Shown here in pieces: positions 10,795-14,105 of a stretch of DNA of 64,000 bases. The stretch is from Escherichia coli (GTDB lineage Bacteria; Pseudomonadota; Gammaproteobacteria; Enterobacterales; Enterobacteriaceae): NCBI RefSeq assembly GCF_011045215.1, contig NZ_CP049201.1; one strand, given 5' to 3'. The stretch's first letter is position 1, and each line of letters opens with the position of its first letter. The position numbers and the translations under genes were made by a program. The notes below the pieces were generated by a model, which was not told the DNA's origin, made no database searches, and was given only the letters and a program-made list of their open reading frames with translations.

Positions 10795-11043
10795 ATGATC
10801 CACAGTAGCGTAAAGCGTTGGGGAAATTCACCGGCGGTGCGGATCCCGGCTACGTTAATGCAGGCGCTCAATCTGAATATTGATGATGAAGTGAAGATTG
10901 ACCTGGTGGATGGCAAATTAATTATTGAGCCAGTGCGTAAAGAGCCCGTATTTACGCTTGCTGAACTGGTCAACGACATCACGCCGGAAAACCTCCACGA
11001 GAATATCGACTGGGGAGAGCCGAAAGATAAGGAAGTCTGGTAA
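10795..11043 (+). CDS. mazE: antitoxin MazE
   Basis: 82-aa [30 protein letters not shown]... (AbrB/SpoVT fold). Confidence 0.95.
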
Positions 11044-11378
11044 TGGTAAGCCGATACGTACCCGATATGGGCGATCTGATTTGGGTTGATTTTGACCCGA
11101 CAAAAGGTAGCGAGCAAGCCGGACATCGTCCGGCTGTTGTCCTGAGTCCGTTCATGTACAACAACAAAACAGGTATGTGTCTGTGTGTTCCTTGTACAAC
11201 GCAATCAAAAGGATATCCGTTCGAAGTTGTTTTATCCGGTCAGGAACGTGATGGCGTAGCGTTAGCTGATCAGGTAAAAAGTATCGCCTGGCGGGCAAGA
11301 GGAGCAACGAAGAAAGGAACAGTTGCCCCAGAGGAATTACAACTCATTAAAGCCAAAATTAACGTACTGATTGGGTAG
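11043..11378 (+). CDS. mazF: endoribonuclease toxin MazF
   Basis: 111-aa ORF overlapping the mazE stop; PemK/MazF fold. Confidence 0.95.
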   Translation: MVSRYVPDMGDLIWVDFDPTKGSEQAGHRPAVVLSPFMYNNKTGMCLCVPCTTQSKGYPFEVVLSGQERDGVALADQVKSIAWRARGATKKGTVAPEELQLIKAKINVLIG

Positions 11379-11448
11379 TGTTACTAACTCACTTCTATTC
11401 TGGTCACAGGTTTCCACCTGACGGACCCGCAATTTTCAGGACATTCTA

Positions 11449-12240
11449 ATGAATCAAATCGACCGTTTGCTCACTATTATGCAGCGCCTGCGCGACCCGG
11501 AAAACGGCTGCCCGTGGGATAAAGAGCAGACATTTGCCACCATTGCGCCTTACACCCTTGAAGAAACCTACGAAGTGCTGGACGCCATCGCCCGTGAAGA
11601 TTTTGACGATCTGCGTGGTGAACTCGGCGATCTGCTGTTCCAGGTGGTGTTTTACGCCCAAATGGCTCAGGAAGAAGGGCGCTTTGACTTTAATGATATT
11701 TGCGCTGCGATTAGCGATAAATTAGAGCGTCGCCATCCGCATGTTTTTGCTGACAGTTCTGCCGAAAACAGTAGTGAAGTGCTTGCCCGTTGGGAGCAAA
11801 TCAAAACCGAAGAGCGCGCGCAGAAAGCGCAGCATTCGGCGCTGGACGATATTCCTCGTAGTTTACCGGCTTTAATGCGGGCGCAAAAAATCCAGAAACG
11901 TTGCGCCAACGTTGGCTTCGATTGGACGACGCTTGGTCCGGTAGTCGATAAAGTCTACGAAGAGATCGACGAGGTGATGTACGAGGCACGGCAGGCTGTT
12001 GTCGACCAGGCTAAACTGGAGGAGGAAATGGGGGACCTGCTGTTTGCCACGGTCAATCTGGCTCGTCATTTAGGGACAAAAGCGGAAATCGCATTGCAAA
12101 AAGCGAACGAAAAATTCGAGCGTCGTTTTCGCGAAGTGGAGCGTATTGTTGCCGCGCGTGGACTGGAAATGACAGGTGTTGACCTCGAAACAATGGAAGA
12201 AGTCTGGCAACAGGTAAAACGGCAGGAAATTGATCTCTAA
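11449..12240 (+). CDS. mazG: nucleoside triphosphate pyrophosphohydrolase MazG
   Basis: 263-aa ORF with two MazG EExxE-type repeats; follows mazEF. Confidence 0.92.
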   Translation: MNQIDRLLTIMQRLRDPENGCPWDKEQTFATIAPYTLEETYEVLDAIAREDFDDLRGELGDLLFQVVFYAQMAQEEGRFDFNDICAAISDKLERRHPHVFADSSAENSSEVLARWEQIKTEERAQKAQHSALDDIPRSLPALMRAQKIQKRCANVGFDWTTLGPVVDKVYEEIDEVMYEARQAVVDQAKLEEEMGDLLFATVNLARHLGTKAEIALQKANEKFERRFREVERIVAARGLEMTGVDLETMEEVWQQVKRQEIDL

Positions 12241-12452
12241 GGGAATTACGCGGTCAAGCGCCATTTGTGTCATTTTTTAAATGACAAGCGCTTGATTTGC
12301 GTCAAAAACATTTACCCCAAAGGGGCTATTTTCTCACTCCTGATTTCAATAGTGCGCTGGCGAAGAGGAGGGATAATGAAAGTTTGTGGCACAGGTCATG
12401 TTCGGGTATACTGCTTTCCCGTCCTGGTTATTCCATCGTCTTTTCAACCTAA

Positions 12453-14105
<1,653 letters not shown>

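Follow-up and report, generated by a model that had tools for sequence, protein, structure and literature searches.

The mazG-pyrG palindrome of Escherichia coli overlaps a conserved FNR and IHF site upstream of pyrG

The 3' half of the palindrome between mazG and pyrG of Escherichia coli is, with a probability that we put at about 0.6, the upstream edge of a conserved region for FNR and IHF binding in front of pyrG; its two-fold symmetry is probably not the functional unit, and its left arm is probably a copy. Under anaerobiosis, FNR occupies the box TTGATTTGCGTCAA in vivo according to published ChIP data, and the region is enriched in IHF. What is functional at the core of the palindrome is an FNR (and IHF) site that has been published before, and the finding is to this extent largely ordinary. 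It removes a candidate novel RNA element, since the conserved part of the palindrome is the FNR/IHF site of published ChIP tables. The comparative data argue for strong selection on this bound-but-silent FNR site, and they point to a candidate anaerobic promoter, with an upstream open reading frame (uORF), for an essential nucleotide-biosynthesis gene.

Locus and fold of the palindrome

The window, the whole stretch of 64,000 nucleotides of DNA that was analysed, carries the genes relA-mazE-mazF-mazG-pyrG-eno in this order, all of them on the plus strand. Positions 12100-12600 are 100% identical to O157:H7 genomes and differ by one nucleotide from K-12, in which U00096.3 coordinates equal 2922134 minus the window coordinate. 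The 227-nt spacer between mazG and pyrG contains no annotated feature in RefSeq K-12. Our literature search on a mazG-pyrG terminator or intergenic region found nothing relevant, and the literature on the pyrG promoter concerns mostly B. subtilis. The genes and the parts of the palindrome are as follows.

11449-12240, plus strand: mazG
12248-12302, plus strand: full extended hairpin according to minimum free energy (MFE) folds, with partial covariation at pair 14-62
12254-12261: left outer arm TCAAGCGC, pairing with GCGCTTGA (inverted-repeat search)
12268-12275: left inner arm TGTCATTT, pairing with AAATGACA (inverted-repeat search)
12279-12286: right inner arm AAATGACA, pairing with TGTCATTT (inverted-repeat search)
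12288-12295: right outer arm GCGCTTGA, the last four nucleotides of which are the first four of the FNR box
12315-12325: small GC hairpin CCCC-AAA-GGGG in the spacer between the FNR box and the hexamer TATTTT, scored as terminator-like on the minus strand only
12468-14105, plus strand: pyrG, encoding CTP synthase

The palindrome is present at 12254-12296 with the sequence quoted in an earlier, sequence-only reading of this DNA. The extended inverted repeat claimed there is borne out by a repeat search, which resolves it into two nested perfect 8-bp inverted repeats. The two sides are asymmetric, with an internal loop of CATTTG on the left facing a single A on the right, and the apical loop is TTT. 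The 43-nt RNA folds with -16.8 kcal/mol, compared with -6.5 +/- 2.2 kcal/mol for dinucleotide shuffles (z = -4.8), and none of 200 shuffles reached as good a value. Pairing of the flanking ACGCGG with UU-UGCGU extends the stem and brings the energy to -24.2 kcal/mol. Minus-strand RNA and single-stranded DNA of the palindrome fold similarly, and the hairpin persists in a 146-nt context. On a plus-strand transcript, the extended hairpin would sequester 11 of the 14 nucleotides of the FNR box sequence, as judged from the MFE folds. Compared by MFE with every 45-nt window of the 64 kb, the hairpin belongs to the most stable 2%, and to the most stable 0.3% when those with similar G+C are considered; 145 loci in the 64 kb are at least as stable. 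The palindrome is non-random but not unique.

Of 5426 complete E. coli genomes, 5425 have the palindrome at a single place, and it was found on none of the plasmids. Membership in a dispersed repeat family (REP, BIME or ERIC) was rejected because of this single copy per genome. Rfam 15 covariance models gave no match on either strand of 11000-13500 up to E = 10. A separate 12-nt inverted repeat, TTGACCTCGAAA at 12179-12190 and TTACGCGGTCAA at 12246-12257, is 83% complementary and joins the end of the mazG coding sequence with the palindrome's left flank, probably by chance.

Conservation, pairing and template switching

We gathered 80 Enterobacterales loci with MazG as the query. The adjacency of mazG and pyrG is general among them, and the spacer is 223-231 nt long in most Enterobacteriaceae. 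Alignment A1 comprises 51 distinct Enterobacteriaceae sequences and is almost gap-free, with column numbers equal to the window position minus 12237; the MazG proteins of the genera compared are only 75-89% identical. The invariant columns of A1 cluster in ACAAGCGCTTGATTTRCGTCAAAAACATTT (12284-12313) and GCTATTTTC (12325-12333), and the left arm, the internal loop and the T-rich centre vary. Columns 48-76 and 89-96 are invariant or nearly so. The exceptions within columns 48-76 are N4 spacer positions, namely column 54 and column 62, which is split between G and A.

Conservation of the arms across Enterobacteriaceae had been proposed as a check of the palindrome, and the outcome differs between the two arms: the right arm is nearly invariant, but the left arm, conserved to about 87%, deteriorates in distant genera. 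Expressed as scores over 44-51 Enterobacteriaceae, conservation is ~0.97 in the right arm, ~0.87 in the left outer arm and ~0.66 in the flanks. The TTGA of the right outer arm does not vary at all, and its GCGC is conserved to at least 90%. Most other genera have TGTGATTT as the left inner arm, and Citrobacter, Salmonella and Klebsiella have AAATAACA as the right one. Columns 34 and 46, the central inner pair, form a standard pair in just 6 of the 51 sequences and are unpaired in 45, so that the perfect inner repeat is essentially a feature of Escherichia.

The 89.5% pairing of the outer helix is due solely to the conservation of its two sides; changes on both sides account for two cells of the alignment, compared with 43 unpaired cells. 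Overall pairing amounts to 78.6%, against 77.1% for column shuffles. To judge from the alignment, symmetry or pairing is not what is conserved. The stem-extension pair 14-62 is CG in 23 sequences, UA in six, UG in five, and unpaired or other in 17; the G/A split of column 62 is the basis of this covariation. The covariation, together with the E. coli polymorphisms 12251 C>T and 12300 C>T, which keep G.U pairs on the plus strand, is a suggestive hint of structure. The proposal of a structured RNA element is at best doubtful: it has the modest covariation of the stem extension in its favour, but the palindrome has no Rfam match, 45 of 51 relatives have a break in its inner stem, and its arms are essentially devoid of compensatory change.

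In six of the 5426 complete E. coli genomes (A30, 81EVA, EPSSH018, MB06233, 602687 and 8479), CATTTG in the 12261-12267 region is replaced by T; the loci with the perfected palindrome are L085 and L087-L092. The resulting allele, TCAAGCGCTTGTCATTT-TTT-AAATGACAAGCGCTTGA, has perfect 17-bp arms, in which the left arm is the exact complement of the right one as the result of a single complex change. Intramolecular template switching at a quasi-palindrome would be expected to leave just this signature. Over 6 kb, 0-41 SNPs separate the six genomes, but close to the site they are nearly identical, and because of this near identity one or few origins of the allele are likely. Quasipalindromes are hotspots of template-switch mutagenesis, as described by the Ripley model and by the thyA and lacZ QP reporters of E. 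coli from the Lovett laboratory. The mazG-pyrG palindrome resembles them in being an imperfect inverted repeat with a natural allele that rewrites one arm as the complement of the other, and differs in that the allele comes from natural genomes, not from a selection assay. The perfected allele of the six genomes is a clean natural example of this kind of mutagenesis. The left arm is most likely a copy, in quasi-palindromic form, of the right arm, which is the constrained one; intramolecular template switching would keep the two alike, and the left arm would have an accessory role at most. Such copying can mimic covariation without selection on structure. The conservation of the left arm above its flanks and the covariation of the extension leave room for a real hairpin function.

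The T-run lies in the loop rather than 3' of the stem, as the sequence-only reading pointed out, and the sequence after the stem is TTTGCGTCAAAAAC. That reading was also right in not calling the palindrome a canonical intrinsic terminator. A consensus scan of 11900-12700 found no plus-strand terminator, and the stem is followed by UUUGCGUCAAAAAC, which offers only UUUG in place of a U-rich tract. The palindrome is similar to an intrinsic terminator in forming a stable stem-loop directly downstream of a stop codon, but it differs in its T-run in the loop, in the UUUG that is all that follows the stem, in the A/U-rich base of the stem (UCAA/UUGA, not G+C-rich) and in having no mapped 3' end. The consensus scan also found no sigma70 promoter with a -35 element. 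The Term-seq tables of Adams et al. 2021 contain no 3' end between K-12 positions 2909630 and 2910995, which is weak evidence because mazEFG mRNA is barely detectable. Consecutive 3' ends in these tables are at 2909630 or 2909628, the former two positions being 36 nt inside pyrG, and then at 2910995 or 2913710. On RNase III processing of this region, our literature search led only to the aMEF paper, which describes the mazEFG transcript as not reproducibly detectable. The TERMITe supplements contain no 3' end at the palindrome.

It is conceivable that the palindrome serves as a plus-strand RNA hairpin at the 3' end of mazG, where it could stabilise the transcript end, terminate weakly or with the help of a factor, or form an RNase III-type processing stem and so keep relA-mazEFG read-through separate from pyrG; we consider this unlikely. 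A stable hairpin does start 8-14 nt past the mazG stop codon, in its longer context as well, and a hairpin potential of -13 to -16.6 kcal/mol is kept in many genera. Pair 14-62 covaries with U.G intermediates and its score of 0.110 exceeds 0.092 +/- 0.005 for shuffled alignments (0 of 500 as high), but related sequences can exceed shuffles without any structure. Both E. coli polymorphisms yield G.U pairs on the plus strand; the main stem, however, shows breaks rather than compensation, for example the uncompensated C54>A in E. coli E69 and several Citrobacter. Only -4 to -8 kcal/mol are left of the hairpin energy in Citrobacter, Salmonella arizonae and Kluyvera, in which the right block is nonetheless invariant. 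A U-tract after the stem is absent on the plus as well as the minus strand, most genera have the order U-run, hairpin, A-run, which is the reverse of that of a terminator, and neither Term-seq nor the TERMITe supplements place a 3' end in the intergenic region. A role of the hairpin in mazG 3'-end biology is a minority possibility, and we favor the reading in which the right arm is conserved as part of the FNR/IHF region.

The small GC hairpin ACCCCAAAGGGGC (12314-12335 region) is flanked by AAAAACATTT on one side and by TATTTTCTC on the other, and no gene ends on the minus strand there. It is paired in 63% of cells and is lost in Buttiauxella, Cedecea and Mangrovibacter, in which the flanking TATTTT is kept; its fold as single-stranded DNA is not significant. 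The idea that this CCCC/GGGG hairpin together with TATTTTCTC is the true mazG terminator was judged unlikely, given that the hairpin is lost in several genera while TA..TTTC is invariant and that the fold is not significant.

The FNR and IHF site

The proposal that the palindrome is a protein-binding site holds for its right half only, where the right outer arm overlaps a ChIP-verified FNR box and an IHF core consensus. The arm supplies the TTGA of the left FNR half-site and the N4 of the IHF core.

12285-12297, minus strand: IHF core AATCAAGCGCTTG, an exact match to the consensus WATCAANNNNTTR, overlapping the left FNR half-site
12292-12305, centre 12298.5: FNR box TTGATTTGCGTCAA, matching the consensus TTGAT-N4-ATCAA at 9 of 10 positions

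The pyrG FNR site is listed in Table S6 of Myers et al. 2013 (PMC3688515) as TTGACGCAAATCAA at 2907851 (U00096.2) with a PatSer score of 14.73, under an FNR ChIP-seq peak. The peak, at 2907811 and labelled pyrG, was called by MOSAiCS, NCIS and CisGenome from ChIP-seq and also by ChIP-chip (PMC3688515). With a position weight matrix (PWM) built from 62 other bound sites of Myers et al. 2013, the pyrG box scores 16.5 bits, which is the best value in the 64 kb (runner-up 12.2 bits; median of the training sites 15.4 bits). The box is invariant apart from the N4 positions in the 51 sequences, and the perfect FNR consensus TTGATTTACATCAA occurs in one metagenome-assembled genome. In the Erwiniaceae (Pantoea and Erwinia), an FNR-like box is located 158-169 nt from the pyrG start codon, with unalignable flanks and no comparable hairpin (-1.5 to -9.7 kcal/mol). 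The FNR-like box is absent from Pectobacterium, Serratia and related genera. The summit of the FNR ChIP signal is at about window position 12345, between the box and a very strong sigma70 peak, and part of the signal could be polymerase-associated cross-linking.

All nine specified positions of the IHF core are invariant in the 51 sequences, and its N4 is looser. They include C48, A49 and A50 (CAA at 12285-12287), which lie outside the FNR box. An A/T-rich stretch, AAATGTTTTTGA, is found 5' of the core on the minus strand. The IHF consensus alone is weakly specific, with seven core matches in the window versus 1.7 expected. The IHF ChIP-chip region 2907482-2908337 (U00096.2) corresponds to window positions 11819-12674 with its centre at ~12247, and has a low resolution of 855 bp (PMC3688515). 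The pyrG FNR site is annotated as overlapping this kind of IHF ChIP-chip enrichment and is one of 14 of the 63 bound FNR sites that are also enriched in a nucleoid protein, in this case IHF (PMC3688515). It itself belongs to the set of FNR sites that are co-occupied or occluded by nucleoid proteins (PMC3688515). It differs from them in that the IHF core shares the ATCAA/TTGAT half-site with the FNR box, and in that the non-FNR positions of the core (TTR) are invariant across genera. This invariance suggests a selected composite site, not an incidental overlap, as far as can be judged from the alignment. Half-site resemblances to PurR, RutR, CRP, ArcA and LexA were dropped by eye on account of wrong spacing or a poor match.

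Main and putative secondary promoter of pyrG and the upstream open reading frame

The elements between the FNR box and pyrG are a main promoter, a putative second -10 hexamer and a uORF.

12327-12332, plus strand: putative -10 hexamer TATTTT of an upstream FNR-dependent pyrG promoter, with a predicted transcription start site (TSS) at ~12336-12340
12376-12471, plus strand: uORF of 31 codons, with the Shine-Dalgarno sequence AGGAGG at 12366-12371 and a stop codon, TGA, that overlaps the pyrG ATG (ATGA)
12384-12420, plus strand: main pyrG promoter, with TTGTGG at 12384-12389, a 17-bp spacer, TATACT at 12407-12412 and the TSS at CCC, 12418-12420

The pyrG cloning primer of Adams et al. 2021 begins at CCCGTC, and the E. 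coli pyrG promoter has been described as having a 'CCC' initial transcribed region with only 10.1% slippage (PMC12709180). The very strong sigma70 ChIP-seq peak at 2907750 (U00096.2) corresponds to about window position 12406. Conservation of the main promoter is high, and a Brenneria locus whose intergenic region is only 92 nt long has kept it. The sequence-only reading was mistaken in placing the palindrome in the pyrG leader: it lies ~120-165 nt upstream of the main TSS (-165 to -122), in promoter-upstream DNA. The CTP-sensitive attenuator of the pyrG leader of Bacillus subtilis and Lactococcus, which relies on reiterative transcription, is similar in having a hairpin upstream of pyrG, but its mechanism and position are unrelated; in E. 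coli, the palindrome precedes the main TSS.

The FNR box is centred at about -119.5 relative to the main pyrG TSS. To our knowledge, FNR does not activate from such a position, and for this reason a separate upstream promoter is the simplest reading of the site. The hexamer TATTTT begins 28.5 bp after the centre of the FNR box, and none of the 51 sequences has an indel between box and hexamer. The block GCTATTTTC around it is invariant or nearly so (T90, A91, T93, T94, T95 and C96), and Erwiniaceae have TAnnnT at the same offset from their FNR-like box. In class II FNR-activated promoters (nirB, narG, dmsA and yfiD), the FNR box is centred near -41.5. The pyrG site is like them in its near-consensus box (9/10), its occupancy by FNR in vivo, the lack of a usable -35 element, and a TAnnnT motif 28.5 bp from the box centre at invariant spacing. 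It differs in that pyrG mRNA is unchanged in delta-fnr cells in glucose minimal medium, the TSS is a predicted one, the IHF core overlaps the box, and a strong constitutive promoter lies 80 bp downstream.

We hypothesize that an FNR dimer is positioned at about -40.5 to -41.5 from a secondary pyrG start near 12336-12340, which would be served by TATTTT without a -35 element. At low oxygen, FNR would recruit RNA polymerase to this secondary promoter, and the transcript would include the conserved uORF at 12376-12471. IHF bound over the left half-site may compete with FNR or modulate it, and such competition would fit the unchanged pyrG mRNA of delta-fnr cells in glucose minimal medium. As candidates, both this secondary promoter of class II type and the connection of the uORF with it are plausible. 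In its widest form, the proposal is that enterobacteria share an oxygen-responsive, IHF-gated class II FNR promoter as a secondary pyrG promoter, which gives a uORF-bearing transcript and is adjacent to an active template-switch hotspot that re-copies the FNR/IHF half-site; we advance this combination tentatively and regard it as rather doubtful as a whole. If it holds, the uORF transcript would subject CTP synthase to control by Rho-attenuation or by translational coupling that depends on conditions.

In most Enterobacteriaceae (Escherichia, Citrobacter, Salmonella, Klebsiella, Enterobacter and Mangrovibacter), the uORF is open at 30-31 amino acids, with a 3-nt indel that keeps the frame. Its ATG is absent from Buttiauxella, Cedecea, Siccibacter and more distant genera. 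Transcripts from the main pyrG TSS start downstream of the uORF ATG, and translation of the uORF would need a transcript that begins farther upstream or reads through. The protein has an exact match in nr that is annotated 'hypothetical' only, and the main text of the Weaver 2019 preprint does not contain it. Adams et al. 2021 reported an abundant Rho-dependent 3' end 36 nt inside pyrG (~12504-12506; K-12 2909630/2909628) that they flagged 'uORF', and a pyrG-lacZ fusion that is up more than 2-fold in rhoR66S. These observations point to control of pyrG by premature termination.

Two further explanations concern the protein side of the palindrome. The FNR box may be bound but silent, so that nothing in the palindrome is functional for pyrG and its symmetry is chance or a mutational quasi-palindrome. 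Expression data agree with this: pyrG shows no FNR-dependent change under anaerobic conditions in glucose minimal medium (Table S9, category 5; PMC3688515) and Myers et al. 2013 count 156 operons with FNR peaks and unaffected expression (PMC3688515). The template-switch variant moreover demonstrates that symmetry can come from mutation alone. We give little credence to this explanation, since about 40 bp are nearly invariant across genera in which neighbouring intergenic bases vary freely, the spacing from box to hexamer is strictly kept, and Erwiniaceae maintain the box at the same distance from pyrG despite unalignable flanks. Alternatively, another symmetric DNA-binding protein, for example a regulator of pyrG or mazG of the LysR or GntR type, could use the whole dyad or the inner TGTCA-N9-TGACA repeat as its operator. 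The perfect 8-bp inner arms of E. coli and the protein occupancy of the promoter-upstream region in ChIP speak for such an operator. The perfect inner dyad is, however, limited to Escherichia, with TGTGATTT/AAAT[GA]ACA in most relatives, and the 26-bp gap between the outer arms is atypical of a single dimer. Table S9 of Myers et al. names no regulator of pyrG besides FNR and has the entry 'Unknown' (PMC3688515). We regard this operator as very improbable.

In some Citrobacter, Kosakonia, Pseudocitrobacter, Klebsiella and Enterobacter, insertions of ~55-125 bp between the GCTATTTTCTC block and the Shine-Dalgarno sequence of the uORF lengthen the mazG-pyrG spacer to 280-355 nt (loci L014, L018, L025, L028 and L037, and L019 and L024 with shorter ones). 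They part the FNR block from the main promoter and leave both intact. The L014 insertion contains TGTGACTGGGGTGAGTG, which we take to resemble an ERIC/IRU element, from its likeness to the ERIC2 primer. Two Siccibacter loci (L046 and L047) have similar spacer lengths with a different inserted sequence that has no ERIC-like motif.

FNR ChIP peaks are also present upstream of other operons of nucleotide metabolism; together with pyrG, the Myers 2013 Tables S5, S6 and S9 list carA, pyrD, pyrL, upp/purM, guaB, purA, apt and nrdD. They may represent a coordinated anaerobic input into nucleotide synthesis. The FNR site of carA, TTGATTTACGTCAT, differs very little from TTGATTTACGTCAA, the pyrG box in Citrobacter and Klebsiella.
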